Origin: a virus
Strand: one strand, 5' to 3'
Length of the DNA: 64,000 nt
Virus record (IMG/VR): IMGVR_UViG_3300014656_000015
Each line of letters opens with the position of its first letter. Positions within the stretch are counted from its first letter, which is position 1. A program made the position numbers and the translations under genes. A model generated the notes under the pieces. That model did not search any database and had not been told where the DNA came from. It saw only the letters and a program-made list of their open reading frames with translations. Below, one piece after another: positions 48,715 through 64,000 of the stretch.

Positions 48715-50964
48715 CTACGCCACCCCGCCGATTCTTGCAAGAGCCCCAGCCATCTTGAGCCCCTGCAGATCACAATGCTGATCGACGTAGTCCGAGGCCG
48801 GATCCCCTGTGTAGGCCCTGTTCAGATACGTCGTCGGCATCGTCCTCAGCATTGATTCAAGCACGGCAGCCCCCCTCTTGGCAAGACCCGAACGGATCGG
48901 GTCGTGGCCGAGCACGGTCTCCAGGAGCTCGGGCTCCTGCAGAATGGCGTCCTGGGTCAGGGCGGCGACCTTGTAAATCAGATCTCGGCGGTAGCCTCGG
49001 TACAGCCCCCCGATCTTCTTCAGGAGCTCCTGCTCCTCCACATCATCCTTCTTCTCGGCCGCGGCCCCGTCCCGGCCCTTGGCCACGGTCATGACGGTGC
49101 GTCGGTGCAGGGGTGGGCCGAAGGCGCTGCGTCCCATGATCATGGGAAGTAGCATTCTAAGAAAGTGAGGCAGGGTTCGATCCGGCAGATCGAATGGCAA
49201 CGGCTCCTCACCAGGACCGAAGGTGCGGTCCTCCCGATGCAGGCTGTCCGCCAGGCCGGGGCGGCCCATGGCGATGATGATGATGCGCTGGAACTCCTTG
49301 GGCTTGAGCACGATGCCGGCACCACCCGCGCTGGCCAATGCAGCCGGTACGTCCCGGGCCATCGCATCCTGCGTCTCGAGCGGGAGCTCGGGCTCCGCGT
49401 TCTCCAGATCCGGCAGCTTGGCCTCGAAGTTGGACTTCACCCGCTTCTCGATCTCGGCGTCCTTGTCCAGGGCGACCTTGGGCGCGGAACCCTGCTTGGC
49501 GCGCTGCGCGAGCTCGGTCCGGACCCGCTTGAGGTAGTTGTTGATCCTGGCCTCGGTGGCCGGGTCGATGTCGTTGAAACCGAGCTCCTCGATGCCACCT
49601 TGCGCCCTCTTTTCCGTGACGGATGGGCTCGATCTCTGCGCTCGGAGCAGGGCCCTGACCTTACCAAGATCGACATCGGCGCGACGATTCACGAACTGTA
49701 CCTCGTAGCCCGCATCACGCGCCGCGCCAATCACCTTGTTTGCCGCAGCCCGCTCCAATGCAATGGAGTGACGTTCCAGATTCTTTCCATCCAGAGCCAG
49801 GTGTGTGGCGCCGCCCAGGCCCAACGCACCTAGCGCAGTGGTCAGTGCGGTAACGCGCCGATTCCCACCACCATAGCCCATCCTCCCACCAGCCAGCCCA
49901 CCCGCAACCGCACCCATTGCGGGTACGGCAACGCGCACCGCGGTGCTCGCCTGCCTCGCCGCACGCTCCGCTGCGTCCGGTGAAAGTACCCGAATCGTTT
50001 CCTTAGCCATCTTCGTCTCCCCACGGGACCAGACCTCGTGCACGTGGCTCGAGGCGATGGTGGTACCCTGATCACAACTAGCGCACTTCTTGTGGCCAGG
50101 GCGTAGCGGGCACTCCCCGGCCAACTTGGCCAGGACGTAGCTGGTCTTGTCCGCACCGATGAAGACCACGCTCAAATCGAAGAAGCGCGGGTGCAGGTTG
50201 ATCATCTTCACCTTGCGCCCGTCCGGATAGATCTTGCGAAGCTGAGTGCGGATGTGCTCGCAGTAGTCCGACGTTGTCGGGCTCAGCCCGCGAATGGGGA
50301 GGCGGCGGTGTTCGGCCAGGTCGATCTGGGGGTTGCCCGTGATCCGGGACCAGTCGGTGCAGTAACCGCAAAGGTCGAATGGAACCTTGCAGCCCATACT
50401 GACGCTAGGAAAGCCACCGGCGTCGATGCGGGACAGGATATCGGAAGCACCACGCTCCAGCGCTCGGGCACGATCGAAGGCCGCGATCAGGAGGACGCGG
50501 TGCATACGATCGTCCCACAGCACGTAGACCAGATCTCCAAAGGCCCTGTTCGGATCCTTGTTCTTGTGGTGGGCGAAGGTCTTGGCGTTGTAGAAGGTGG
50601 GAAAGCCCCACTCCCACCGCTTACCCTCCGCAACTTGCTGCTGGTAACTCATCCGTTCCCAGCCCGGAGGAGTGTGTATCAAGGAGGGCTTGTTCAGCCC
50701 CATCGGCATGCGTTCAGGGAAGTCATCTCCGTTACTATTATCGCCCCAATACTCGCCGCCACCCATCGCGCTGATCAGGGCGTAGAGCAGGTTGTCGTCC
50801 TTGGGCAGCTCCTTCATCACGGCCTGGATCCGCTCGAGCTGGGGCACCGAGACGGTATCGGCAGCCGTCTTCAGAAGATGGGCGTTGTTGTAGCCGGGAT
50901 GGAGCAGGTGGAGGTGCTCCCCCCTCTCATCGAGGGTGGGGAACTGGCACTGCTTGACGATCAC
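48715..50964 (-). CDS. putative prohead protease with Zn-finger insertion and long C-terminal extension
   Basis: FAHHKN, VSMGCKVPFDLCGYC, CEH, FFDLSVVFIGAD pattern; upstream of scaffold/MCP genes. Confidence 0.7.
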   Translation of the reverse strand: MIVKQCQFPTLDERGEHLHLLHPGYNNAHLLKTAADTVSVPQLERIQAVMKELPKDDNLLYALISAMGGGEYWGDNSNGDDFPERMPMGLNKPSLIHTPPGWERMSYQQQVAEGKRWEWGFPTFYNAKTFAHHKNKDPNRAFGDLVYVLWDDRMHRVLLIAAFDRARALERGASDILSRIDAGGFPSVSMGCKVPFDLCGYCTDWSRITGNPQIDLAEHRRLPIRGLSPTTSDYCEHIRTQLRKIYPDGRKVKMINLHPRFFDLSVVFIGADKTSYVLAKLAGECPLRPGHKKCASCDQGTTIASSHVHEVWSRGETKMAKETIRVLSPDAAERAARQASTAVRVAVPAMGAVAGGLAGGRMGYGGGNRRVTALTTALGALGLGGATHLALDGKNLERHSIALERAAANKVIGAARDAGYEVQFVNRRADVDLGKVRALLRAQRSSPSVTEKRAQGGIEELGFNDIDPATEARINNYLKRVRTELAQRAKQGSAPKVALDKDAEIEKRVKSNFEAKLPDLENAEPELPLETQDAMARDVPAALASAGGAGIVLKPKEFQRIIIIAMGRPGLADSLHREDRTFGPGEEPLPFDLPDRTLPHFLRMLLPMIMGRSAFGPPLHRRTVMTVAKGRDGAAAEKKDDVEEQELLKKIGGLYRGYRRDLIYKVAALTQDAILQEPELLETVLGHDPIRSGLAKRGAAVLESMLRTMPTTYLNRAYTGDPASDYVDQHCDLQGLKMAGALARIGGVA

Positions 50965-50967
50965 CGC

Positions 50968-51432
50968 CTAGTCCCCACCACTGTCTCCAGCACTTCGCAT
51001 GAGCCCCGATGTGATCTGGGGTATGGGCAACTGCTCCAGGATGGTGGGACGCCTCATCTTGTCCTCCGCACCGGCAATATCGGCCATGGTCCTCGGGTCG
51101 ATGTACTCGTCCTGATACATGGTCCGCTTGACCCAGGACGAGGCCACTACAGGATCCTGGGCCAGAGTCGGCGATGCGTTGTGAAGCGTGTTGAACAAAG
51201 TCCGAACCCTCTCCGCCGGCTCCCTGGTCAGCTCCGGGTTATATGCCAGCATGCCCTTGAAGCCACGTTCCCTGCCGATGTGGTTCTTGATCGCGCGATA
51301 CGCCTCGGTCATGCCGAGCAGCGCTACCGGTGCGGCAACACTGACCGCCATCTCACGGCCAAAGCTGCCCCAGCCCGCGGCCCGCTTCTCGAGGTCCTCG
51401 TCTGCCAGGAAGTCGTTGATCGGATTGCTCAT
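50968..51432 (-). CDS. putative internal head protein
   Basis: FLADEDLEKRA, hydrophobic helix, then FNTL..ASPTLAQDP. Confidence 0.7.
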   Translation of the reverse strand: MSNPINDFLADEDLEKRAAGWGSFGREMAVSVAAPVALLGMTEAYRAIKNHIGRERGFKGMLAYNPELTREPAERVRTLFNTLHNASPTLAQDPVVASSWVKRTMYQDEYIDPRTMADIAGAEDKMRRPTILEQLPIPQITSGLMRSAGDSGGD

Positions 51433-51434
51433 GG

Positions 51435-51824
51435 TCAATACGCCATCCCTGTTCGTGGGTCCCAGAGCGCCCTGGTCTGGGCGACCCTGGCCTGGAACTG
51501 CCGCTTCTTGGCGCCGAGGTAGGCACCGACCGGATCATTCATGGCCTCGTTGGCCATGCCTGCACCGACAATGGGGGGTGCGGCCAGCACGGTGCCCGCC
51601 GCGATGGCCCCGGGCACGCCGCCGCCCGCCGCGTGGTACGCACCCTTGCCGGCGCCCATCGCGGCGCCATGCGCGGTGCGCAACGCGCCCTGGGCACCAC
51701 GCACCAGCTCCCGACCCGCCTCCGCGGCCACCCCAGCGGTCTTCGCCATGCCGAGATCCTGATCGACGAGCTGGCGCACCACGGCCCCGGTCAGAAAGAG
51801 CTGATCATAGTCGGCAAGCGTCAT
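51435..51824 (-). CDS. Gly/Ala-rich putative internal head protein
   Basis: AKTAG followed by a Gly-zipper; ATGA-coupled. Confidence 0.65.
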   Translation of the reverse strand: MTLADYDQLFLTGAVVRQLVDQDLGMAKTAGVAAEAGRELVRGAQGALRTAHGAAMGAGKGAYHAAGGGVPGAIAAGTVLAAPPIVGAGMANEAMNDPVGAYLGAKKRQFQARVAQTRALWDPRTGMAY

Positions 51825-52714
51825 GGCGCACACCTCTCTCGTAGCAGACCCTGCAGCTGCTCCCGCTGCTCCCCCAGCTTCTCCTTGGCCGCGAGCAGCG
51901 TGTAGTAGGAGCGGGCCGCTGCGGCAAACTTCTCGAAGCTGCGGCAGAGCGGGTGGGATCGGTCCAGGACGAGGTAGTCCGCACCGCTCCGACCCGCCTC
52001 CACCGATGGCACGTCGCGGACATGGGCCTGGACCTGCTTCAGGGCCAGCTTGGTCAGGGCCGGGGTCGGCGAGAGCTGGTCGAAGGCCACGCTCAGACTG
52101 GCCGGGCTCACCCCGTCCAGGATGGCCCGCCTCGACTCGACGCACATGTCCTCCGCCGCGTCCACGTAGGCCGCGTACTTGGACATGAGCTCGGAGCCGA
52201 CCACGTCCTCCGCCGTCTTGACCCGGGTCCACAGCACGAGCAGGTCCCGGTTCGGGGAACGGGGCGGGTAGTCGGCACCGGCCGACGCCCTCTTCTCCAT
52301 CTCGAGCGACTCGTCCTCGAGGAGAGCGCTCCCCGGCACGAACCGCTCGACGTCATGGAGGAGTCTGGCTGTCTTCATGATAGCCGCTCCTTCCTCTCCT
52401 GATGGCGTATCTGTCTCGAGCAGTGCGGCTACCCGGTGCGGATCCGCTGGCCCGCCCAGGAAGTCCACGACTCGATGCGATCCGGCCATCTTCGGAAACG
52501 CTGCGGCAAAGGCCGCGTTGTTCGTGAACTCGACGACACGCTGGACCTGTTCCCGTCCCAGGTCGTGTCCCCGGAGAACCTCGACGACGGCATCGGTCAA
52601 CGGCATCTCCCTTGATCCGTGCAGAGCAGCGGCCCGCTTCCCCAGACCTTGCAACACCCTTGGATCGACCGCTGCGGAACCAACCATGGAGATCTCTCCT
52701 GGCTCCAGGTACAC
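51821..52714 (-). CDS. putative head protein
   Basis: EQVQRVVEFTNNAAF; KTA, KRA, KFA sites. Confidence 0.7.
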   Translation of the reverse strand: MYLEPGEISMVGSAAVDPRVLQGLGKRAAALHGSREMPLTDAVVEVLRGHDLGREQVQRVVEFTNNAAFAAAFPKMAGSHRVVDFLGGPADPHRVAALLETDTPSGEEGAAIMKTARLLHDVERFVPGSALLEDESLEMEKRASAGADYPPRSPNRDLLVLWTRVKTAEDVVGSELMSKYAAYVDAAEDMCVESRRAILDGVSPASLSVAFDQLSPTPALTKLALKQVQAHVRDVPSVEAGRSGADYLVLDRSHPLCRSFEKFAAAARSYYTLLAAKEKLGEQREQLQGLLRERCAP

Positions 52715-52753
52715 TTACCCCTGGTATCTTAGGTGTAACACAGGTGACGTGTC

Positions 52754-53509
52754 ATGGGAAGTCAACCGGATCTCATAACGATAGAGGAAGCCGCGGAGCT
52801 GCTGGGTCAGGACCCGAAGCACATCCACCAGCTCTGTGCGGACGGACGGATACGGAGGACCCGGGTCGGGGATGCCGTGCTCGTCCCACGTGGCGACGTG
52901 ATCGAGGTGCGTCGGATGGATCTGGGCACGGAGGATCCAACTGAACGGATCCTGGCCCTGGAGCACCGCGTGGCCCGACTCGAGTCCGCGCTCACCCTCC
53001 TGTTCGACGTGATGAACATGGGCAAGGATAGATTCGGGCCAATGTCCCGGGACCAGTTGGAGCATCTCTACTCCCAGGCCTGTCTGCTGGATCGGGAGCG
53101 GAGCTGGGACCTGCCCACTCTGATCGGGCAGGCCGAGACCTTCATCCGAATCACGGAGACCGAGCTGGTGCGGATCAACCGCATCGTGAGCGTGGACGAT
53201 AGCTGGCGGCCCTTCTTCAATCTGTGCCTGCGCATGCTGCAGCATGTCCAGGAACACCCCGAGCTGGGACAGAACCTGGAGCTGCAGCGGGCCCGGGCCC
53301 TGCTCCTTACCGGCCGCGACAACCTCCGGCTCTGCGCCACCCTGCTAATTGAACGGGCGCATCGTACCGAGAGCAGCGAGAAGGTGCTGGCCCGGGTAGC
53401 CGCTGTAGACCTGGACGCGTTCGATGTCCTGATCCGCAAGCATCACTCCGACCACCAGTGGCGGCGCACCGACCACCTCCGGCTCCTCGATCCTGCAAAA
53501 TCGGAATGA
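52754..53509 (+). CDS. excisionase-like HTH DNA-binding protein
   Basis: LITIEEAAELLG....IHQLCADGRI..TRVG...LVPRGDV. Confidence 0.8.
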   Translation: MGSQPDLITIEEAAELLGQDPKHIHQLCADGRIRRTRVGDAVLVPRGDVIEVRRMDLGTEDPTERILALEHRVARLESALTLLFDVMNMGKDRFGPMSRDQLEHLYSQACLLDRERSWDLPTLIGQAETFIRITETELVRINRIVSVDDSWRPFFNLCLRMLQHVQEHPELGQNLELQRARALLLTGRDNLRLCATLLIERAHRTESSEKVLARVAAVDLDAFDVLIRKHHSDHQWRRTDHLRLLDPAKSE

Positions 53510-53583
53510 TTCCTGTGATAAGGGGTCTGTAGGCCCAATCCCAGGCTTCTTTGCTGCAAAGTGGCCGCTGGGATTGGGATAAG
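53494..53583 (+). promoter_or_regulatory. two tandem ATAAG-class promoters
   Basis: TGCAAA-N17-GATAAG at 53494-53522 and 53555-53583. Confidence 0.7.
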
Positions 53584-53642
53584 AACAATGAGTGGTCGAG
53601 CATTCTCCTTGCTCCGCACCACTCGGGAAAGGAGACTGTGAA

Positions 53643-54140
53643 ATGAGTGAGGAGAAGAGGGAGTGGCCGTCCATCCTGGACGCCGCTCTCGACGACCCCG
53701 CCGCGACAGCGGCGGGGGCAGTTCTGGGGGCGGCCATCCTGGCCGTCCCCACGATGTTGGTCTGCCGGTACCTCGAGGCCAGCCCCGTCGTGACGGGGTT
53801 GAGCACCGCAGGTGCCGGCCTGGCGGGCGCCGGTGGCGGCGCGACGGCGGTGGCGGCGAGTCGCCGCCGGTCGGTGCGGCGCACAGCGACCTCGGTGGCA
53901 TCGGCCATCGAGGGGGAGCTCGACACCTTCGACCGCCGGATCGCGGCGGTCGAGGGCCGGCTGGGGGCGGGGGACACCACTGTCAGGGTGGTGTTCCCAG
54001 ATGTCGCCGAGAGCCTCGGCGGTCTGCCGGAGACTGTCCGGCAGATTCGGGACATCCTCGAGGGTGCCCCGGACCCCGAGCCCCCGCCCAAGGCCACCGT
54101 CAAGAAGGGCAAGGGCGGAGACGCCCAGCCCACCGCGTAG
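53643..54140 (+). CDS. accessory membrane protein (two TM segments plus coiled coil)
   Basis: GGAAAGGAG RBS; ends at hairpin+TTTCTTAG. Confidence 0.7.
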   Translation: MSEEKREWPSILDAALDDPAATAAGAVLGAAILAVPTMLVCRYLEASPVVTGLSTAGAGLAGAGGGATAVAASRRRSVRRTATSVASAIEGELDTFDRRIAAVEGRLGAGDTTVRVVFPDVAESLGGLPETVRQIRDILEGAPDPEPPPKATVKKGKGGDAQPTA

Positions 54141-54202
54141 TCCCACCTTCCGTTCCCACCCTCGGTCCCACCTCGTGGACCGATTTCTTAGGGGTCTATA
54201 TG

Positions 54203-54660
54203 GTTATAAGAATTATGGAAAGGAGGCAGAAATGCCAATGATGTATCGTGTGGACGTTGTCGGAGTGTACGTACGCTCCGACACGTTCGGCCTGCTGTTC
54301 TCTCGCGCCAACGAGGCGCTGGCGTGTGGCCAGGCCCTCCGGGAGATGCTCCCGGGGGTTGTCGTTACGGTAAGTCGGGTGACAGCGGACGGAGGCTGTC
54401 CGCTGATCCTTCTCACCAACTTTCCAGGGGGGGCGACGGCGGTCGTGGAGGGGGCTCCGCCCCCATTCTACGACTGTGAGGGGGCCCAGCTCCTCCCCAT
54501 CGAGAGATGGGAGGAGCTGCGAAACCGCCTCCTTCTCGATGTGGCACACCACAAAGGCACTCTCCACCGAGAGTGCCAGATTCACATTCCCTAGGCCCGG
54601 TTCTGGGCCAATTCCTTAGCTGTATATCGTTATAAGAATTATGGAAAGGAGGCAGAAATG
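54203..54660 (+). repeat. exact 32-nt direct repeat (promoter+RBS+ATG) at 54203-54234 and 54629-54660
   Basis: GTTATAAGAATTATGGAAAGGAGGCAGAAATG occurs twice. Confidence 0.95.
54232..54594 (+). CDS. accessory cassette protein
   Basis: MPMMYRVD; framed by the cassette signals. Confidence 0.75.
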   Translation: MPMMYRVDVVGVYVRSDTFGLLFSRANEALACGQALREMLPGVVVTVSRVTADGGCPLILLTNFPGGATAVVEGAPPPFYDCEGAQLLPIERWEELRNRLLLDVAHHKGTLHRECQIHIP

Positions 54661-54924
54661 TCTCAGAAAGAGGAGTTCCTGGCGGCGCTGGAGTGGAGGG
54701 TCGAACGGGCGACCCCCACAACCAGTCAGTGGAGCCCCCTCGGAGCCAGCCAGCACGGCTGGTTCCAGGAGGCGGTGGCGGCGGGGAACGTCCTCCTCGC
54801 CGCGGGATGGGCGGCTGACGTAGCCGCCCAGTTCCGTTCGGAGACTGGGGAGGGTCGGGTCGCGGACCTCCTCCTCGAGGAGAGGGCGTGGCAAGTCGCC
54901 GCGCTCATCGATCTGCTCACCTAG
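54658..54924 (+). CDS. accessory cassette protein
   Basis: Framed by the cassette signals. Confidence 0.75.
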   Translation: MSQKEEFLAALEWRVERATPTTSQWSPLGASQHGWFQEAVAAGNVLLAAGWAADVAAQFRSETGEGRVADLLLEERAWQVAALIDLLT

Positions 54925-54992
54925 CCCCGTTCCGGGGCCAATTCCTTAGTCGTGTATAGGTATAAGAATATTGAGGAAAGGAGGTACACATC

Positions 54993-55313
54993 ATGTACTT
55001 CATAGAAGTTGAGGCGAAGTGGAACTCGCCGTTCGCGGCGAGCCTGGAGATTGAGAACCCGACTGATGCGCTTCGGGTCGCCGAGTGGCTCTCGAAGAGA
55101 GCCGATCGAGCTTGTATCTCCTGTCACGCCCGGACCCCTGTGATGTTTCAGGGCAGCAGTATCCGGCTGCTGTCCTACGAAACCTTCTACCTGGTGGACG
55201 AGGAGGGGGTCCCCGAGGAGTGGACTCTGCTGCTCGAAGCGGCAGAGGAGTACCTCAAAACAGCCCATCACCTCAAAGTCTGCCGTGAACTGGACCCCAA
55301 CCAGGTCTGGTAG
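54993..55313 (+). CDS. accessory cassette protein
   Basis: TATAAG...GGAAAGGAGG upstream; GCCTC/GAGGC hairpin+AATTCCCTTAG downstream. Confidence 0.75.
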   Translation: MYFIEVEAKWNSPFAASLEIENPTDALRVAEWLSKRADRACISCHARTPVMFQGSSIRLLSYETFYLVDEEGVPEEWTLLLEAAEEYLKTAHHLKVCRELDPNQVW

Positions 55314-55342
55314 CCCACCCGCCTCACTCCGAGGCAATTCCC

Positions 55343-57199
55343 TTAGGCCACTATACCCGGAGCGAACTCCACGCTGCCCGGGAAGAGTGGGATGATGATG
55401 TCGGGACGCGGCCGCACGATCATGCTGGCCAGGAAGCAGTAGAGGATGGAGTGGAACGTGTCATCACTCTTGCCTCGGGTCAGCTTGTACTGCGTCATGT
55501 GGAGCCGGGCATTGTACTCGGCAAAGATGTTCAGCATGTCGGCGGCGAAGGGTTCCTCCCACTCCTTCCAGGCCGGGAACCGGATCCGCTGGTTGCGGAT
55601 CGCGCTGAAGATGTCGCTCATGATCTCGGTACGGTGCAGCATGAAGCGGCCCAGCTCGGGCTCCCACTTGATCTTGGTCTTCGGGTTGCCCGTGTACTGG
55701 TACCGGGCGACCCGGGACGCACCGAAGTTCCGCATGAGCCAGTCATTGCGGTCGAAGCCGCCGCCGTAGTCCGAGCCCAGGATCTTGAAGTCAACCGCAT
55801 GTAGCAGCTTGGCGATGCGCCGGAGCTGGCGTCTCGGGTCCAGATCCTCCCCCACGAAGCGGTGTGCAAAGAAGATCTGGAAGATGCCGTCGATGTACCC
55901 ACCTAACGTAAGTAGTGAGAATGACGCATCTTCCCCGGTCCCGTGATCCAGTCCGGCAAAGACCCCGCTCTCGCACCGCTTCGCGGTCTCCAGCACCGCC
56001 CCGATCCGGATGGTCTCATTGCAGCACCGGATGATGTGGCTGCGCTTGAGCGGGCGCTGCCCCGCGTCGTGGGACAGCCCGAGCACCTCGTTGTTGAACT
56101 GGGTCTCGTCGTACTGTTCCAGGTGTGTCAGGATCTCGGTCCACTTCTCCCCTTGCATCCAGGGCACCATGAGCTGGGAGATGTGGTAGCCCTCGAAGGT
56201 GACCCGGTTCTCGTTGTCCGCGGTGACCGGCTGCAGCGAGACCCACTGCGCCAAGGGGTCGGCGGGGTCGATAGGTTCCCCGCACCGAGCACAGATCGGT
56301 CCCTCCTTGCCGATGTTCTTGATCCCGAGCAGGTTCCAGTGCCAGGAGGAGGGGTCGTTCGGGACGCCATGGTGCTGGCACGGCACGGCCCACTCGTTCT
56401 GGGTCGAGAACTCGGTCCAGTACTTGTGGATCGAGTTGTCCAGGCTCTTCGGCGTGCCAGCATAATCGAAGAGACCCCAGTGGGAGTGCGACGTGCACTG
56501 CTCGATGACCGGCACCGATGGGCCATGCACGTCCTGGAACTCGTCGATCTGAACCTTGTCGCTGGCAATGCCTCTGGCCCGGTCCGCGGAGAGGAAGGCG
56601 TAGCGCACCCGGACCTGGGAACGGTTCCGGAACTGCTTGAAGAACACGTTCTGGCTCAGGTTCCGGTTCACCATGTACTGGAGCTCGGGGCTGATCTCCA
56701 GCGGGTCCTTCAGCCGATCCACGCTGAAGACCTGGGCCTGGGCCGCGGTCGGGCACACATAGAGCGTCTTGAAGGCGGGCACGATGGCGCTGTACGCGAT
56801 GGCGCTGTTACCGAGGTAAGTCGACTTCTCGCTCTGCCGGCTGTAGACCAGGAGCTTGCGCCGGGCCGGGGAGTCGTAGACCGTCTTGAGGTAGCGCCGA
56901 CCCTCGAAGCTGAAGGGGGTGATGGCGCCCTCGATCGGGAGCTTGATGGCGAACTCGGTGAACTCGGACGGGGTGACCTCGACCTGGCGCAGCTTCCGCA
57001 GGGACTCGAGCTCCTGCTCGAACAGGATGCTCTCCATCTCGGCGCTGGCCAGCTCATCCTCCTCCTGTAGCAGGAGGGCCTCGAGCTCATCCTCCAATCC
57101 CTGGTCCAGCTCTTCCTGCGCCAGGACCCGTTTCGAGTCGAGGTAGAAGTCCCGGACCTCTTCGGAGGCAGCAGCCATCCCCTGCAGGACTTGAACCAT
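55343..57199 (-). CDS. terL: terminase large subunit (GpA-like); 5' end disrupted by an IS
   Basis: SRQSEKST Walker A variant, DRARGI, IDEFQD Walker B, GTPK, VPC Zn segment, AGLDHG nuclease motif, DDTFHS. Confidence 0.9.
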   Translation of the reverse strand: MVQVLQGMAAASEEVRDFYLDSKRVLAQEELDQGLEDELEALLLQEEDELASAEMESILFEQELESLRKLRQVEVTPSEFTEFAIKLPIEGAITPFSFEGRRYLKTVYDSPARRKLLVYSRQSEKSTYLGNSAIAYSAIVPAFKTLYVCPTAAQAQVFSVDRLKDPLEISPELQYMVNRNLSQNVFFKQFRNRSQVRVRYAFLSADRARGIASDKVQIDEFQDVHGPSVPVIEQCTSHSHWGLFDYAGTPKSLDNSIHKYWTEFSTQNEWAVPCQHHGVPNDPSSWHWNLLGIKNIGKEGPICARCGEPIDPADPLAQWVSLQPVTADNENRVTFEGYHISQLMVPWMQGEKWTEILTHLEQYDETQFNNEVLGLSHDAGQRPLKRSHIIRCCNETIRIGAVLETAKRCESGVFAGLDHGTGEDASFSLLTLGGYIDGIFQIFFAHRFVGEDLDPRRQLRRIAKLLHAVDFKILGSDYGGGFDRNDWLMRNFGASRVARYQYTGNPKTKIKWEPELGRFMLHRTEIMSDIFSAIRNQRIRFPAWKEWEEPFAADMLNIFAEYNARLHMTQYKLTRGKSDDTFHSILYCFLASMIVRPRPDIIIPLFPGSVEFAPGIVA

Positions 57200-57206
57200 G
57201 GTGCTC

Positions 57207-58418
57207 TCAGGTGAACACATAGCGGCCTGCTTCCTGTTTCGCAGAGGACAGTTTCACGACGGCCATCAGACCGACGTCAGCGCTCCCCTCTCCACAGGCT
57301 GTCACGGCACGGGCTGCCGCGATGTTTCTCAGGTTTACGGCGGCATTAACGTCGCGGTCATGGACGACGCCACACCCTGGACAGGACCACTTTCGGACGG
57401 ACAGCGGGAGGCTCTCGACAACGTGGCCGCAGTCGGAGCACATCTTCGACGACGGGAACCAGCGGTCAACCATGACAACCTCGGAACCTGCGAGCGGGGC
57501 CTTGTAGGTGAGCTGCCGCCTCATCTCCGACATGCTGGCATCGGCGACCGACTTGGCGAGGTGATGGTTCTTCAACATCCCGCTGACGTTCAGGTCTTCG
57601 ATGCCGATCCATCGGAAGTCTCGGACGAGCCGAGACGTCAGCTTGTGGGTCACGTCGCTTCGGATGTTGGCGATACGCTCGTGGACGCGCTGAATCCTCG
57701 CCTTCGTCTTGCGCCAGTTCTTTCCGCCTTTCGTCCGCCTCGACAACTCGCGCTGAAGTCGCTTGAGCCGCTTCTCATGGAACCGCAGGGCGCGCGGAGC
57801 TTCCACCTTCGCCCCGTCGGAGAGCACGGCGAGGTCTCGAACCCCGAGGTCTATGCCACACACCGCGTGAGTCTTGCAGGCGTGCGGGTACGACCAGCGG
57901 GAGTGATCAACCTCGACCTGGACGGAGACGAACCAGTGGTCGACGTGCTTCGTGAATCGGGCCGACAGCACCTTACCGGGGAATCGAAGCGTCTCCCTCA
58001 TGCGGAGCCAGCCGAGCTTCGGGACGCGGACACGACGGCCATCAAACGTCAGGGCTCGCGCCTCGATGGCGAACCCTTCAAGGCACCGCCCACGCTTCTT
58101 GAATCGAGGATACCCAGGCTTGGAGTTTCCAGCCTTGATGCGTCGGAAGAAGTGGCCGAAGGCAGCGCCGAGGTCAGCGAGTGCCTGGTTCGTGACCTTC
58201 CAGGGAAGCTCGGCCATCCACGGAAAGTCATCGGCCTTGCGGGCGTTCAACTCGGTGTTGAGCTGCTGCCACGACGGCTTCTCTCCGCCGTTGTAGAGTT
58301 CTTGCCAGCGGGCGAGGCCGTGGTTCCACACGAACCTCGCCGTCCCGGCGCACCGCTCGAAGAACGACGCCTGGACGTTGTTCGGATCGAGCTGAATACG
58401 CTGGCCGAGGATGGTCAC
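57207..58418 (-). CDS. tnpB: RNA-guided endonuclease TnpB
   Basis: GTARFVWN, PRFKKR, GIDLG, IEDLNV, SSKMCSDCG..CPGCG, DRDVNAA; RuvC D-E-D intact; GTG start overlaps the RHH stop. Confidence 0.95.
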   Translation of the reverse strand: MTILGQRIQLDPNNVQASFFERCAGTARFVWNHGLARWQELYNGGEKPSWQQLNTELNARKADDFPWMAELPWKVTNQALADLGAAFGHFFRRIKAGNSKPGYPRFKKRGRCLEGFAIEARALTFDGRRVRVPKLGWLRMRETLRFPGKVLSARFTKHVDHWFVSVQVEVDHSRWSYPHACKTHAVCGIDLGVRDLAVLSDGAKVEAPRALRFHEKRLKRLQRELSRRTKGGKNWRKTKARIQRVHERIANIRSDVTHKLTSRLVRDFRWIGIEDLNVSGMLKNHHLAKSVADASMSEMRRQLTYKAPLAGSEVVMVDRWFPSSKMCSDCGHVVESLPLSVRKWSCPGCGVVHDRDVNAAVNLRNIAAARAVTACGEGSADVGLMAVVKLSSAKQEAGRYVFT

Positions 58419-58552
58419 CGCTTTTTGTCCATCAGGTCGTGGAGGGCCATGCGGACGACTTCCCCCAGGGAGACGCCCAACCGCTTTGCCTCTAGACGAA
58501 GCCAGGCCAGGAGGGGAGGGTCGAGGTGGATTTCGAGTGGCTGTTTCCTCAT
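58415..58552 (-). CDS. CopG/ribbon-helix-helix protein (45 aa, not in the ORF track)
   Basis: MRKQPLEIHLDPPLLAWLRLEAKRLGVSLGEVVRMALHDLMDKKR; GTGA-coupled to tnpB. Confidence 0.75.
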   Translation of the reverse strand: MRKQPLEIHLDPPLLAWLRLEAKRLGVSLGEVVRMALHDLMDKKR

Positions 58553-58559
58553 GCTCAAG

Positions 58560-58588
58560 AGCATATATGCCAGTAAGGGCAATGTCAA
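58560..58588 (-). promoter_or_regulatory. sigma70-type promoter of the IS
   Basis: TTGACA-N17-TATGCT, 7 nt before the RHH ATG. Confidence 0.8.
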
Positions 58589-58644
58589 TAGCAATGTTCA
58601 ACTTGGCTGTTCTCAGGTGAACAGCCGAGGTCAGCTTGACATCA

Positions 58645-58683
58645 TTGACGAATACGGAGTTCGTCGATAGGGGATAGAGGCAT
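58645..58683 (-). pseudogene. probable original 5' segment of terL (MPLSPIDELRIRQ)
   Basis: Joins in frame to V57190 if the IS is removed at the TCAA junctions. Confidence 0.5.
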
Positions 58684-58686
58684 GGT

Positions 58687-58732
58687 ACCAAAGTCCGGGG
58701 TGTCCTGGGTATAAGGTCTGGACGGAAAGGAG
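58687..58732 (+). promoter_or_regulatory. ATAAG-class promoter plus RBS
   Basis: ACCAAA-N17-TATAAG...GGAAAGGAG. Confidence 0.75.
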
Positions 58733-58738
58733 ATCTAG

Positions 58739-59158
58739 ATGCCCACGATAACGGACGCTGCCCTGGCCAACTGGCTCAACGAGCTGGAGCACGGGAAGCA
58801 GACACTATGCTGTCAGCTCCCGGGACCCCTGTGGGTGCTGATCGACGGATGGCAGGGAGCCGTGCTGTCCGAGTGGTACTCCGCCAGCTTCGATCTGGAG
58901 CCCCGGGATGAGGGGGTATCGGTGTACTTCGACAACCCGGACGACGCGGACCAGGTTTGCCGCGAGCTCTATCTGAAAGGGAGGAAGCGGGAGGAACGTA
59001 TCCGGGCTCTTCGCAACCTGGTCCGGGGTCCCATCCTGTCGCTGACCGAGCGGGATCGGTGGCAGCGGATCGAGGCGGAGCACCTGGATCGGGTTATGGA
59101 TCGTCACACGAGATCCAGACTGCAGCGCCTCTTCGGCAAGGGAGGCGAGCATGGATGA
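58739..59158 (+). CDS. accessory hypothetical protein
   Basis: First gene after the promoter/RBS. Confidence 0.75.
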   Translation: MPTITDAALANWLNELEHGKQTLCCQLPGPLWVLIDGWQGAVLSEWYSASFDLEPRDEGVSVYFDNPDDADQVCRELYLKGRKREERIRALRNLVRGPILSLTERDRWQRIEAEHLDRVMDRHTRSRLQRLFGKGGEHG

Positions 59159-59516
59159 GCGTTGTGCCGCCAACCTGTCCTGGTTGGACGACGTGATCGA
59201 CCGTATCAACGGCTGGTTCAGCGATCGGTTCACGTTGACCAACATGCGGCAGAGTGCCATGGACCATCCGATCCACGGCAACGTTGTCCTGCGCCGCTAC
59301 AGCATCGTGTTCCACGGCGGCAAGTTCGAGCAGGAGATCGAACCGGAGGAGGGGGAGGAGATCGAGGAGTTCATCAAGGAGGAGTGGGACGACACACCGT
59401 GCTGGCCCGGACCTGTCATGACCTACACCGATGGGGAGTGGGACTTCTGCGAGTGGGGCAACGGCCCCGATGGGTCCCCGGAGTTCTGGATCTTCCTGGA
59501 TCCACTCGCGGAGTAG
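59151..59516 (+). CDS. acidic accessory hypothetical protein
   Basis: GGGAGG RBS; ends at GAGGAC/GTCCTC hairpin+TACTTAGC. Confidence 0.7.
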   Translation: MDERCAANLSWLDDVIDRINGWFSDRFTLTNMRQSAMDHPIHGNVVLRRYSIVFHGGKFEQEIEPEEGEEIEEFIKEEWDDTPCWPGPVMTYTDGEWDFCEWGNGPDGSPEFWIFLDPLAE

Positions 59517-59558
59517 GGGACGGAAGGAGGACTGGGGGGTCCTCTACTTAGCTCAGTA

Positions 59559-60800
59559 CTAGATCTCTCCGGCTTCGAACGCTTTGAGGATACGTTTCCG
59601 TGTCCCCGGTGTCGGGGTCTGACCATAGACAAAACCGAAGGGGCTGAGCGTCTCCACTTCCCCTGTCCGAAGTTTGAGCATTCGCTCCCGCACCTCCGGA
59701 GGAAGCGTGGCAAGACGTGTACTTTCTCGCATCAGCACTTCAGGACTCTGGTGTACGCCCCGCACGACATGGCCCTTCTTTTTTGGTAAGGCGCGCAGCA
59801 GAGCAGAGGAGGAGAACGGACCCAACGCCACTCCTTCTTCAGCAAGCTGCGCAATCTGAGGGCGCATACGGTGTAAATAGGCACCCTCCACTCTTTCCTT
59901 CAAGCCTTCGACCGGTTTCTCCACCACCCAATCCTTGCCGAGGGAACCGGTTCTTGAGAGCGCCTGGCCCTTGATCACGGCCTCGTCCATTTCGTGAGAA
60001 CGAAGCAGAGCGTCAAGGCTTTCCCTGCTCTGACCACCAACATCCCGTAGCATCGGACTCACAGACGGTGCTTCTATCGTCACCGGACGGTGGCCGACAA
60101 CAAGGGGTGCCCCTCCCACATTGATCGTCACGGGTCGAACCCCGGACATGTACCCCTCACCCATGCGAGCCAGGCGAAGCTGCTCCCCGACCTCCTTGGC
60201 TCGAGATGGCTGCCCCATCAGTTTCTTGCCCAGCTCACCACCCAGCTCACGAACAGACGGCTGCAGCCGATCCACTCCATGCCTCTCCGCCAAGCCCTGG
60301 AGACCCCTATGGATACCCCTTGTCTCCTTGCCGTAATCCAGAACCCCATGCTGAAGCAACCGACTCACGTCCTCCGCACCGAGTTGCCCCGCCCGCAAGA
60401 CGCGCTTCCACGCTGCCAACGCAGCTTTCTCCATGCCTTCACCAGCTGCTTTCCCCATCGCATCCCGATTGGTACGGGCCACGGCACGCTCCAACGCGGT
60501 TCGTTCCTGGTGAAGGGCTGGTGCGGAGGCACGACGTAGATTCGGAGCGCTACGTGCCGCGGCACGATTCAGGAGCCGCAACGCGGCCGGCGGCGGGTAC
60601 ATCGCTGTGGTGAGCGCGATCTTCTCCAACTCGTCACAGAAACCGTAGGCACGAGCCGCCTCCTTGGATCGGACGCGCTCCGGCAGCTTCTCGTCCTTGG
60701 GGGTGTGCCGCTCCCACTCCTTCACCACACCGGGCTCGATTTCACCTCGGGCCTTGGCTGCGTGGAAGAAGCGGCGTTGGGCCTCCGATTTGAAAGGCAT
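59559..60800 (-). CDS. putative internal head protein
   Basis: MPFKSEAQRR...KLPERV module, GFCDELEKIA tag, SHEMDE motif. Confidence 0.7.
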   Translation of the reverse strand: MPFKSEAQRRFFHAAKARGEIEPGVVKEWERHTPKDEKLPERVRSKEAARAYGFCDELEKIALTTAMYPPPAALRLLNRAAARSAPNLRRASAPALHQERTALERAVARTNRDAMGKAAGEGMEKAALAAWKRVLRAGQLGAEDVSRLLQHGVLDYGKETRGIHRGLQGLAERHGVDRLQPSVRELGGELGKKLMGQPSRAKEVGEQLRLARMGEGYMSGVRPVTINVGGAPLVVGHRPVTIEAPSVSPMLRDVGGQSRESLDALLRSHEMDEAVIKGQALSRTGSLGKDWVVEKPVEGLKERVEGAYLHRMRPQIAQLAEEGVALGPFSSSALLRALPKKKGHVVRGVHQSPEVLMRESTRLATLPPEVRERMLKLRTGEVETLSPFGFVYGQTPTPGTRKRILKAFEAGEI

Positions 60801-60804
60801 CGCC

Positions 60805-61038
60805 TCACCCCCGTGTAAAGGTCGTGTCCACACTCCGCATCGGGGGAGCTGACGATGGTGTTGCCGCGTACCGACTCTTCCGGAGCAGCAAGCGTTCGAT
60901 CTCCTCCTGGGTTTTCCCGCTCGGTACGGGCCGGGCCGGCGCCCGCCGAATCACACTTCCGAGACCGGCCGGGGGCCGGGTCACCAGCGCGATCTTCTCC
61001 AGCTCGTCACGGAACCCATTCAGGACTGCGGGATGCAT
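60805..61038 (-). CDS. small putative internal head protein
   Basis: MHPAVLNGFRDELEKIA. Confidence 0.65.
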   Translation of the reverse strand: MHPAVLNGFRDELEKIALVTRPPAGLGSVIRRAPARPVPSGKTQEEIERLLLRKSRYAATPSSAPPMRSVDTTFTRG

Positions 61039-61400
61039 TGCTCCACCTTGTCCAGGGCCCGGGTCAGGAAGGTCTCATCGGGGAGGCCGCCCCGAGCCAG
61101 GCCGAAGAGTGTCAGGCACCACCCATGAAACTCCGGTATCCACTCCACCCTCAACTCGTTCATCGGATCCCCGAGGTGGTACGACTCGATCATACAGTCC
61201 CAGATCCGGTAAGGGAAGACCTCGGGCCATGGCGTCCCCCGCACCCGTCGGTACAGGTGCACGATCAGATCATCGACGGACCCCATGTACTCCACCAGGA
61301 AAGTCTGGTAGCGGTCCGCAGCGATGCGGTGCTCCAGGACGGGTTGGGTCTCGGGAGTCGAGCCGACGAACCCGTCCGGGCTGGTAGCGGTTATCGACAC
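61020..61400 (-). CDS. hypothetical protein
   Basis: AGGAG RBS before GTG. Confidence 0.6.
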   Translation of the reverse strand: MSITATSPDGFVGSTPETQPVLEHRIAADRYQTFLVEYMGSVDDLIVHLYRRVRGTPWPEVFPYRIWDCMIESYHLGDPMNELRVEWIPEFHGWCLTLFGLARGGLPDETFLTRALDKVEQCIPQS

Positions 61401-61430
61401 GGTGCGCTCCTGTGTATATAGGGGTAGGGC

Positions 61431-62297
61431 CTAGAACACGATCTCCTCATCTTCCTCCTCCATCGAGGCCGGCGGGGTGTAATTGCCCCGTGTCAGCTCC
61501 TTGACCGCGGCCACCTCCGGCTTGACGTGACGCATGCGGAACGTGGAGAACGCCTCCAGCACGTCCTGGGTCGCATCCGTCGTCGCCTCGATCCCCTCCT
61601 GGGCCCACTTGGCGGCTCGGACATAGGCCAGGAAGGCCCGGGCATGCCGCTCCCCGACCGGTCTGTCGGCCATCTGCTGGATGAACATGTGGGCCAGGTT
61701 CCTGGCATCGGTGAAGACCCGGTTCCCCTCGACCCGGCGCAGGTCCGCCATCCCCATCTTCCAGAGGAGGAGCCGGAGGCCGGCGGAGTCCTTCGTGTTC
61801 AACGCGATCCGGAGCCACTCCTGGTTCGGGGTCTGGCGCTGCCCGACGAACTCGCCCCAATCCAGCGCGCTCATCGCGCTGCGGTTCCAGAAGTAGTGCT
61901 CGAACAGCCGATAGACCTCGGGCCGGATCATGGACCCGAATCGCATCTGGAGCCGGCGCACCGCGGCCTCGGGCCGAACCGGAGACAGGATCATGCTCTC
62001 CATGGCCTGCCGCAGCTCGGGCTCCTCCAGAATGGCCTTGGCCCGAGCCATGTCGTGAGTGTTCTGCCACGCCTCCTGGATGCCCTCCATCCGCAGGAAG
62101 CTCTGAGACGGGTAATGGTCGGGGGAGGCCGGGCAGAACGGGATCGGGAAGCGCATGCCCCGCTCCAGCTCCGTCACGTCGTTCTCAGTCATCCCACCCA
62201 GATCGAGCATGGTGAGCATCTCGGCGATGGCCAGCGATGTGTGGCAACGCCTCGAGACGTAGTACTTGGCGTAGTAGACAGCGGGGTGCTTGACCAT
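61431..62297 (-). CDS. hypothetical protein in the packaging region (terminase small subunit candidate)
   Basis: 288 aa helical ORF; extended -10 upstream; function inferred from position only. Confidence 0.6.
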   Translation of the reverse strand: MVKHPAVYYAKYYVSRRCHTSLAIAEMLTMLDLGGMTENDVTELERGMRFPIPFCPASPDHYPSQSFLRMEGIQEAWQNTHDMARAKAILEEPELRQAMESMILSPVRPEAAVRRLQMRFGSMIRPEVYRLFEHYFWNRSAMSALDWGEFVGQRQTPNQEWLRIALNTKDSAGLRLLLWKMGMADLRRVEGNRVFTDARNLAHMFIQQMADRPVGERHARAFLAYVRAAKWAQEGIEATTDATQDVLEAFSTFRMRHVKPEVAAVKELTRGNYTPPASMEEEDEEIVF

Positions 62298-62333
62298 GTC
62301 AGGAGGAGCGTAGCACAGGATGAGGACAGGGTT

Positions 62334-64000
62334 CTAGGCGGATAGCAGGGAGCGGACCCGATTCCGATTGGCCGCAGCCAGCGGTTGCAAGGTCTCCGCC
62401 GCCACCTTCTCCTGGGACAGGAGCAGGGTACGGAGACCGCGGCAGACCTCGTCGAGCCGCTCCATCGCGCTCTTCGCGCTGCTCTCCGGAACCTCGTCCA
62501 GACCCAGACGGGACGCGAGCAGGAGATGCGCGAGCCGGCTCACGGTCTCCTCGAGCGCGGGCAGGTACTGCACGAAGAGCCGCACGTTCTCCGGGTTGAG
62601 GAAGCCCAGGGACAAGATGTGATCCACCGTGGACACGTCCTGGAACGCGGCGGCCTCCTTCACGAGATGCGTGGTGCGCGGCAACGCTTCCCAGAGCTTG
62701 CGAACCTCGGTGCGGGCCGCGGCCAGCTTCTCCCGATGCTGCGATCCGTCACCGAGGACGCGGCAACCCCGGACCCGTACCCGGTACCGCTTGCTAGCCG
62801 TCTTCAGCATCTCGGCGGCCCGTGACTCGGACAGACCCAGACCCACCGCCAGGAACATGGCATCGCTGTGCTCCAGGGACCGGGTCCACCTGGACCCGAT
62901 CTTCTGCAGGGGCTCCCCCTCGAAGCTCCAGGTCGAGCCGTCGGAGCGCACACTGACGATGGAGGCGTCCCGGAGCATGGACTCCTTCACGAAGTCGGCG
63001 GCCTGATCCACCAGGGGTATCACGTGCTCCGGGAACGGGGCCCAACGCACCGTGTCCGGAATCGCGTAGGTCTTCCCTTCATCGTCCTCGTCAACTTCGG
63101 TCAGCTCGCGGAGGCCCGGGACCAGGCTCAGCTTCAGTGGTTCCCCCTCCAAGGTATGGCACAGCAGGAGCACCGGCCCCTCCTCGGTGCGGGTCGCGCC
63201 TTCCATCTGGACCGGCTGGAACGCGATCACGTTGCCGGTCGAGGCCACATGGTAGAAGAAGCCCTGCTGCGGTTTTCCGTCCGCCCCACGCTCCAGTGGA
63301 TTGGCCCTGATGATGTTGGAGCCCTTGCCGACCAGACTGCCCACGATCTGGTCCTGGATGCCGCATTCGGATCCGTTGGTGAACAGCTTGTAGGTCTTGG
63401 TGGTTCCGTCAAACCCGATGACATCGGGGAAGACCCATCCCATCAGCTCCCGACCATCCCTGGACTTGACCCGGTACTCCCCGAAGCTCTCGATGGGCTC
63501 GATTCGATCCGACTCGAGCTGCTCCCGGACCACGGGCTGAGTCGAGACGGTGCGCTCCCCCACCTCGTCCACGCTCTCCACGATGTCGGGACCCGCGAGC
63601 CCCTCCATCTCGAAACGATCCGTCTCCACCTGCTCCGGCTCGAAGCTATCGACGGACGCCGTCTTCAAGATGTAGGTCTCGCCACGCCGACTGACCTGGA
63701 TCAGGTCTGGCACCCGGCGCGCTGCCAACTTGACCACCTGGTCCGTTGTGAGCGGGCTCGCCGTCTTCAGGATCTCCAGGCTGGGCCGGCTCGCCGGGTT
63801 CGCTGCCAGGTACAGGAGCAGGTCCGGGTCCTTGCCGAGCTCGGCCTGCAACCGGCCCAACGCCTCCTTGGTCATGGTGGGAAGCAGCGAGGCCAGGAGC
63901 GAGCGGTCCGAGCCCATCTTCATCGTGCTGTTGTGGATCTCCCCACTCATGTCTCCGTAGTGCCGGGACTCCGTGGGCGGATGCAGCGACGCCTGCATCG
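62334..64000 (-). CDS. large putative head protein, 5'-truncated by the window edge
   Basis: At least 554 aa with many KTA/KLA/KEA/KVA sites; TVDHILSLGFLNPENV. Confidence 0.75.
   Translation of the reverse strand, partial: MQASLHPPTESRHYGDMSGEIHNSTMKMGSDRSLLASLLPTMTKEALGRLQAELGKDPDLLLYLAANPASRPSLEILKTASPLTTDQVVKLAARRVPDLIQVSRRGETYILKTASVDSFEPEQVETDRFEMEGLAGPDIVESVDEVGERTVSTQPVVREQLESDRIEPIESFGEYRVKSRDGRELMGWVFPDVIGFDGTTKTYKLFTNGSECGIQDQIVGSLVGKGSNIIRANPLERGADGKPQQGFFYHVASTGNVIAFQPVQMEGATRTEEGPVLLLCHTLEGEPLKLSLVPGLRELTEVDEDDEGKTYAIPDTVRWAPFPEHVIPLVDQAADFVKESMLRDASIVSVRSDGSTWSFEGEPLQKIGSRWTRSLEHSDAMFLAVGLGLSESRAAEMLKTASKRYRVRVRGCRVLGDGSQHREKLAAARTEVRKLWEALPRTTHLVKEAAAFQDVSTVDHILSLGFLNPENVRLFVQYLPALEETVSRLAHLLLASRLGLDEVPESSAKSAMERLDEVCRGLRTLLLSQEKVAAETLQPLAAANRNRVRSLLSA

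Follow-up and report, generated by a model that had tools for sequence, protein, structure and literature searches.

Cas12 nucleases descend from TnpB elements, which are known to secure their own persistence by cleaving the empty sites that they leave behind. TnpB uses a guide of about 16 nt transcribed from the sequence that immediately flanks the right end of the element, and the transposon-associated motif (TAM) is the motif found 5' of the left end; once an element has been excised, the complex cuts the empty site and recombination restores the element (PMC13565253). The present analysis concerns one such element in a DNA stretch of 64,000 nt, IMG/VR virus record IMGVR_UViG_3300014656_000015, which comes from a large phage of groundwater metagenomes and is referred to as a whole as the window. 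The sequence features of this element place it in the IS1341 group of the IS200/IS605 family, with arc, a gene for a small ribbon-helix-helix (RHH) protein, next to tnpB; all the features of this group that were tested are present, namely the TnpB motifs, the end hairpins, insertion 3' of a short motif and occurrence at several sites. The element probably occupies 58681-57177 and was inserted 3' of CCAT within the start codon of terL, the gene for the large terminase subunit, rebuilding the ATG at 57178.

With ISDra2-type IS200/IS605 elements, the window element shares a homologous TnpB, an RNA scaffold that reaches from the 3' end of tnpB to the right end, hairpins at the ends, the lack of inverted terminal repeats and of a target duplication, and insertion on the 3' side of a short motif with AT as its last two bases (TTGAT for ISDra2, PMC13565253; NCAT for the window element). 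It differs from them in having no tnpA, an extra left-end hairpin (H1) and an arc gene coupled to tnpB, as well as in being carried by a phage and sitting on start codons. The members of the IS1341 group also encode TnpB and no transposase (PMC13565253), being presumably mobilised in trans; to this plan, the clade of the window element, whose relatives at 60-70% identity occur only in phage-like contigs, adds arc and an antisense frame as long as the element. Furthermore, a small RHH protein that represses IS605 promoters, Arc, is encoded beside tnpB in Arc-containing IS605 elements (bioRxiv 10.64898/2026.09.24.754181). Many of those carry tnpA and a divergent arc, whereas arc in the window is co-directional with tnpB, overlaps it and stands without tnpA.

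The homing endonucleases and inteins of phage terminases, together with intronless homing (T4 SegF), present a further parallel: a nuclease element sits on an essential gene that is kept, and the empty allele is predicted to be cut. In the window, by contrast, recognition is predicted to be RNA-guided, and the start codon is rebuilt with no protein or RNA splicing. IStrons, which combine a group I intron with IS605 or IS607, are likewise TnpB elements residing in genes without inactivating them. This identity was rejected for the window element, whose left end upstream of arc measures only 129 nt: a search of 50000-64000 with Rfam, at E up to 1, returned no group I intron and no known RNA family besides a weak Yfr1-like match. 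IS607 elements possess a serine recombinase TnpA, integrate after GG and end in GG (PMC13565253). An IS607 identity was discarded, the target here ending in CAT and the element in AT, with no match in the window to the open reading frames (ORFs) that stand upstream of tnpB in its nearest cellular relatives. The autonomous IS605 type was set aside as well, an in-element Y1 TnpA being absent, as it is from the IS1341 group by definition.

Boundaries of the element and the start codon of terL

The ends were set by alignment of the thirteen insertion sites of the clade, which include a pair from a single phage genome (L297 and L302), and by comparison with L001, the locus of the closest terL relative, which is free of the insertion sequence (IS-free). 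The features concerned are as follows.

57177-58681, minus strand: whole element, from family alignments, the L297/L302 copies and the empty-site comparison with L001
58682-58685, minus strand: target or TAM-like motif CCAT, whose AT supplied the A and T of the terL start codon before the insertion
55343-57178, minus strand: terL, large terminase subunit; 611 aa when read from the re-formed ATG at 57178-57176 (Pfam GpA_ATPase; phrog_675, 7e-54)
58642-58683, minus strand: 13-codon ORF MPLSPIDELRIRQ and its stop, composed of the old terL initiation region, AT and left-end sequence (direct reading; the terL ATG of L001 is collinear)
58647-58665, minus strand: left-end hairpin H1, with a 6-bp stem, conserved in the clade with compensatory changes
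58605-58626, minus strand: left-end hairpin H2, direct-orientation counterpart of the right-end hairpin (inverted repeat I18, direct repeat D1)

The right ends read AGTC, then 4-10 variable bases and GGGAT, followed by a flank that is unrelated from one of the 13 insertion sites to the next. Since the similarity halts after GGGAT across the relatives, the right end in the window is T 57177. With regard to the left end, NCAT stands immediately 5' of it in 13/13 independent insertions, and its CAT is invariant and lies 15-19 nt upstream of hairpin H1 at all 13 sites; in the window, the left end is G 58681, directly 3' of CCAT, which gives an element of 1,505 bp. The two copies in one genome, which are 91% identical, share a sequence that runs directly after TGTCAT to GGGGAT. 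In one of them, L302, the left flank consists of the last part of an ORF on the same strand, and thus the first 15 nt after CAT are element sequence.

Between these ends lie the left end itself, arc, tnpB, the omega-RNA scaffold and the right end, without a transposase gene. Read along the minus strand, ATG 58683 and the 13-codon ORF are followed by the two hairpins, the promoter, the RHH gene, tnpB, 30 nt and the terL frame. Subterminal hairpins are present at both ends in the same orientation, with a direct repeat (D1) that matches 58597-58623 to 57191-57217 at 78% and a hairpin (I18) at 58602-58629. A repeat search found no inverted pair linking both termini, and there is no target-site duplication, AT being the only dinucleotide common to the target and the right end. 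No second copy or solo end was found within the 64-kb window.

The insertion split the start codon of terL after its second base, AT|G, and the window without 58681-57177 is collinear with the intergenic region of L001 up to the terL ATG. As a result of the insertion, the left copy of AT and the first G of the element make up the ATG of the 13-codon ORF, while the terminal AT of the element and the flanking G re-form ATG 57178, leaving TerL intact. From this ATG, TerL, a gpA-type large terminase, begins with MAAASEEVRDFY, an exact fit to the N-termini of its relatives, MAAA(P/T)E...FY. The TerL of L001, with 83% aa identity and an intein further in, starts with MAAAPEQVRDFY (MAAAPEQ) and has an in-frame stop three codons upstream; that of P0126 starts with MAAATEPIGDFY (MAAATEP), and most other TerL relatives have M, 10-12 residues and then FY. 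No counterparts of MPLSPIDELRIRQ or of MVQVLQG were found in the TerL relatives. Given that the relatives begin with MAAA(P/T)E...FY, the native terL start is ATG 57178 and neither 58683 nor 57199.

The filled site is not confined to the window. Among contigs of other studies, X3 spans the right junction (57062-57371) and X5 the left one (58622-58852); the filled site also lies on a contig of 197.6 kb, and the neighbour protein was found on two contigs, both of them filled. The insertion is thus tolerated. The 611-aa TerL is not on record, nor is the exact TnpB on record as a called gene. One locus, L295, was considered as an empty site on account of its gene table and was rejected, given that the contig ends inside tnpB. 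In addition, the X5 contig holds, over window 57176-57331, a copy about 87% identical up to the same right-end terminus, followed by unrelated sequence; past the right end, a 14-nt motif resembles the 3' arm of H1 in the window, which could reflect a tandem or circle junction or chance.

Genes of the element, omega-RNA and predicted guide

The genes and RNA parts of the element, with the flank that is predicted to encode the guide, are listed below.

58560-58588, minus strand: near-consensus sigma70 promoter (TTGACA, 17 nt, TATGCT), with the same layout in L014, L028 and L029
58415-58552, minus strand: arc, 45-aa RHH protein (Pfam RHH_1, 3.4e-5, above the cut-off)
57207-58418, minus strand: tnpB, 403 aa (Pfam OrfB_IS605, Cas12f1-like_TNB and HTH_OrfB_IS605), with intact RuvC D-E-D triad and CxxC..CxxC zinc finger
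57177-57319, minus strand: omega-RNA scaffold, which overlaps the 3' end of tnpB and runs to the GGGAT terminus
57157-57176, minus strand: predicted guide-encoding flank, made of the G of the terL start codon and codons 2-7; conservation halts after GGGAT

A first, sequence-only reading of this DNA, made without database searches, had described a TnpA-less RHH-TnpB element placed head-to-tail against terL and served by a sigma70 promoter of its own, and in both respects the Pfam hits, the gene layout and the near-consensus match at 58588-58560 agree with it. The arc stop overlaps the tnpB start (GTGA), and the arc-tnpB mRNA is probably leaderless, since the arc ATG follows the -10 box at a distance of about 7 nt. 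By analogy with the described repressors, Arc probably holds this promoter of the element at low activity. Residues D190, E274 and D356 of TnpB, as well as C327, C330, C346 and C349, are invariant among 25 relatives, and the solved TnpB structures 8exa and 8h1j match the window TnpB over its full length (E 4.5e-73); these entries and 8bf8 are those of ISDra2 TnpB.

With regard to a transposase, neither the ORF list nor Pfam revealed a Y1 (HUH) ORF between 58681 and 57177, and a tblastn search of the 64-kb window with HUH/Y-motif ORFs of other loci, queries which lacked Pfam confirmation, gave nothing. One search returned several thousand homologues; the phage collection gave only two short matches of 71%, inside tnpB, and a scan of metagenomes three further close relatives. 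The nearest cellular relatives of this TnpB, at 43-50% identity, are those of L199, L201, L202, L209 and L220, where an ORF of about 220 aa ends at the tnpB start and the right ends finish in GGAACGG; these look like elements of the IS607 type with a serine recombinase.

The omega-RNA fold comprises 32 pairs, 22 of them with compensatory changes (RNAalifold, 12 relatives), and its final scaffold helix includes 57190-57183. The variable bases of the right end pair upstream and covary, reading GCAGG/CCTGC in the window and TCGAG/CTCGA in L024. Since 57190-57177 forms a covarying helix in relatives with unrelated flanks, it belongs to the scaffold rather than to the guide. The sequence-only reading, which took the guide from 57190 onwards, was thus right in that the encoding flank is terL itself and wrong in its 20-nt register, the first 14 nt (57190-57177) of which are scaffold helix. 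By analogy with described TnpB elements, the guide flank is predicted to be 57176-57157, over terL codons 1-7, and the TAM to be CCAT.

According to the proposed mechanism, the complex of TnpB and omega-RNA would carry a guide copied from 57176 downward and would need NCAT at its target. In the occupied allele, GGGAT stands in place of CCAT before the terL start; the IS-free allele, with CCAT and the terL start, would be cut, and the occupied allele, with GGGAT and the terL start, would not. Such cutting would bring the element back once it had been excised, and IS-free relatives in the same infected cell could be converted or excluded by it. By our own reading, L001 differs at three positions of the 20-nt guide region and, as a consequence, might escape cutting. 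With Arc repressing the element promoter, terL would rely mainly on read-through from a phage promoter; the minus strand from tnpB to terL yielded no terminator-like site. A homing-like role for the element may fairly be inferred by analogy.

The element sits at the point where an essential phage gene is most vulnerable, without costing it any coding sequence, and its predicted guide would target the start of terL in any relative that is IS-free. If active, it would stand beside the homing endonucleases and inteins crowding terminase genes as their RNA-guided equivalent, with effects on phage-phage competition and gene flow. The presence of TnpB in phages, Arc and restorative homing are already published. 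In a limited literature search, no published description of start-codon docking with rebuilding of the codon was found, and nothing specific on phage-phage competition mediated by TnpB.

Competing accounts of the junctions, the start and the role

Several observations weigh against insertion on the terL start codon followed by cutting of empty sites. The IS-free allele was sought through the exact left-flank pattern, with 0 matches in viral contigs, and no excision or circle junctions were found in the contigs of four runs, rare variants being dropped from contigs. As the 64-kb window contains no transposase, mobility depends on an unseen TnpA. The NCAT motif was derived from 13 sites, where it is confounded with start codons. 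The target motif and the right-end terminus differ invariantly at one position only, -3, with C in the former and G in the latter, which makes avoidance of self-cutting uncertain. Moreover, the sequence upstream of ATG 57178, where the omega-RNA scaffold now precedes the terL start, offers a poor Shine-Dalgarno match and a G-run abutting the ATG, with bases that are paired in the scaffold, and gene callers placed the start elsewhere, at ATG 57199 (P0122, 618 aa) or at ATG 57220 (625 aa). With neither an empty allele nor an excision joint, and no transposase in the window, the activity, the TAM specificity and the homing are put forward here by inference.

The poor and paired site before 57178 makes initiation at the in-frame ATG 57199 or 57220 possible, and the alternative that survives best is built on this point. 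It keeps the same anatomy and has TerL translated mainly from one of these codons, with 7 or 14 extra residues encoded by the right end. Both codons are in frame with no stop in between, as well as being the choices of the gene callers, and this account is unlikely without being far-fetched. The conserved TerL N-terminus starts at 57178, however, and the native ribosome site of terL is weak too, whether judged from L001 or from the rebuilt site of the window. The right ends do not conserve the upstream ATGs either; ATG 57199 lies in the variable part and is missing from several relatives. The sequence-only reading had seen in it a rescue codon supplied by the element, and while the codon does stand in frame 7 nt after the tnpB stop, it is not purpose-made. 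The contribution of the right end to the terL start holds in another form, through the terminal AT that rebuilds ATG 57178, and it is the last of the alternatives offered in that reading, with the start at 57178, that comes closest to the data.

A second account, which we judge distinctly improbable, accepts the insertion and regards the element as an immobilised passenger or as co-opted by the phage, TnpB being a weapon against related phages only or a regulator of terL; the latter because scaffold and guide cover the terL initiation region. No TnpA is present in the window, only filled alleles were seen among several samples, and one relative (L014) has lost its left-end hairpins. In addition, TnpB relatives at 60-70% identity are restricted to phage-like contigs, those in the species (cellular) genomes reaching at most 50%. 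These points are consistent with co-option, but the copy in the window keeps both end hairpins, and its nuclease residues are intact, unlike those of known domesticated TnpB regulators. Recent mobility is also argued for by at least 13 independent sites with differing flanks and by the two copies in one genome, along with the collinear L001 site that lacks the element.

It is very unlikely that the element begins only at H1 (about 58666). The 15 nt after CAT would then be phage-derived, the empty site would encode MPLSP-MAAAS, and the target motif, in a proposal of the same very low probability, would be a pyrimidine-rich string resembling an anti-Shine-Dalgarno sequence. In most relatives, these 15 nt do read on the other strand as the ribosome site of the neighbouring gene and could be native. 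Nevertheless, L302 has the same segment without a leftward gene, and in the window CCAT is found at the fixed distance, again with no leftward gene there. In L118 and L119, a long H1 stem with a compensatory change reaches to 8-9 nt from CAT, and L001 is collinear with the window.

Least credible of all is the model of the sequence-only reading, in which a TCAA-bounded element (58644-57191) interrupts a MPLSPIDELRIRQ-VLQG-MAAAS extension of TerL, offers a rescue start at 57199 and takes its guide from 57190: its frame arithmetic is correct, TCAA is present at 58648-58645 and 57194-57191, and 57199 is the start called for P0122, but the family comparison makes TCAA neither junction nor target motif and shifts the left junction by 37 nt and the right junction by 14 nt, the clade-conserved H1 lies outside the proposed left junction, 57190-57177 is conserved as a helix beside unrelated flanks, several right ends lack ATG 57199, and the homologous TerL proteins, those of L001 and P0126 included, begin at the position of MAAASEE with no such N-terminal extension.

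Sites and habits of the phage-borne clade

Start codons are the site of insertion in 12 of the 13 sites of the clade. At 11 of the 13, a leftward gene of 96 to more than 440 codons has CAT as its start codon; the window differs in that CAT overlaps the start codon of terL, a rightward gene, and L302 in that CAT stands two codons ahead of a stop. At 8/11 sites, another leftward gene has its stop 0-12 nt outside the right end. Judging from these flanks, the usual position of the element is antisense, in the seam between two operon genes. L014 even regains an overlapping stop codon through its terminal AT. A sequence that reads as a ribosome site of the GGAG type precedes the ATG of the neighbouring gene by 7-13 nt in 8/11 tabulated left ends, with L304 as a ninth by our own reading. 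The strand opposite to arc and tnpB contains a further feature.

57198-58670, plus strand: antisense open frame of 490 codons, covering nearly the whole element and conserved in the clade

Such a stop-free antisense frame, of 445-514 codons, is present in 11/12 elements, among them those of the window, L014, L024, L028, L029, L118, L119, L120, L302 and L304. Its ATG lies 21 nt in from the right end in 8 of the 12, and its stop 4-78 nt short of the left boundary. In two copies from AT-rich phages, tnpB has 0 antisense-stop codons against about 18 expected from the flanking genes, and other tnpB genes of similar G+C have 5-14. A protein from the reverse strand of tnpB has been reported in a cyanophage (preprint 10.64898/2026.02.14.705889).

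These habits suggest that the clade is shaped to avoid polar effects. We tentatively propose, at somewhat less than even chances, that it is built to be translationally transparent in packed phage operons, terL being a rare sense-oriented case in which a gene-drive nuclease is coupled to the start of an essential gene. Under this proposal, the clade would land on start codons because its target, CAT, is the complement of ATG, and the terminal AT would re-form the start or stop codon that straddles the site. The left end would carry an outward ribosome-binding site for the displaced gene, and the antisense frame, ending just before the neighbour's ATG, would let the ribosomes of the operon cross the element. 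From start-codon docking, an outward ribosome site and a back strand free of stops, rules might be drawn for the design of operon-neutral insertions, testable with reporters.

Both L297 and L302 belong to IMGVR_UViG_3300025117_000031, a phage genome of 154 kb. One of these copies replaces the last two codons of a CxxC-rich ORF of 125-145 aa, changing ..CLECH-MK into ..CLECH-SI. At L014:819-870 (the same locus as L015-L023), arc and tnpB are kept and both left-end hairpins are lost, with the 15 nt and the promoter remaining; this element is probably immobilised. It stands two genes from a terminase of a different type (Terminase_6N/6C), in a phage present in 23 contigs.

On the other side of the terL start lies a divergent gene.

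58739-59158, plus strand: divergent neighbour gene, 139 aa, starting 54 nt from the original terL ATG; the layout in L001 is equally divergent

The terL genes of this phage group are a recurrent landing site for selfish elements. The intein of L001 (L001:1230-2470), which contains a LAGLIDADG-type endonuclease (PF14528, PF14890), sits in the ATPase domain of the terminase, where inteins are also found in P0125, P0135, P0139, P0143, P0145 and P0150; the terL of the window is without an intein. Finally, the Yfr1-like Rfam match lies at 60699-60755 on the plus strand and is probably due to chance, with 27 bits against a gathering score of 38 and an E of 0.06.

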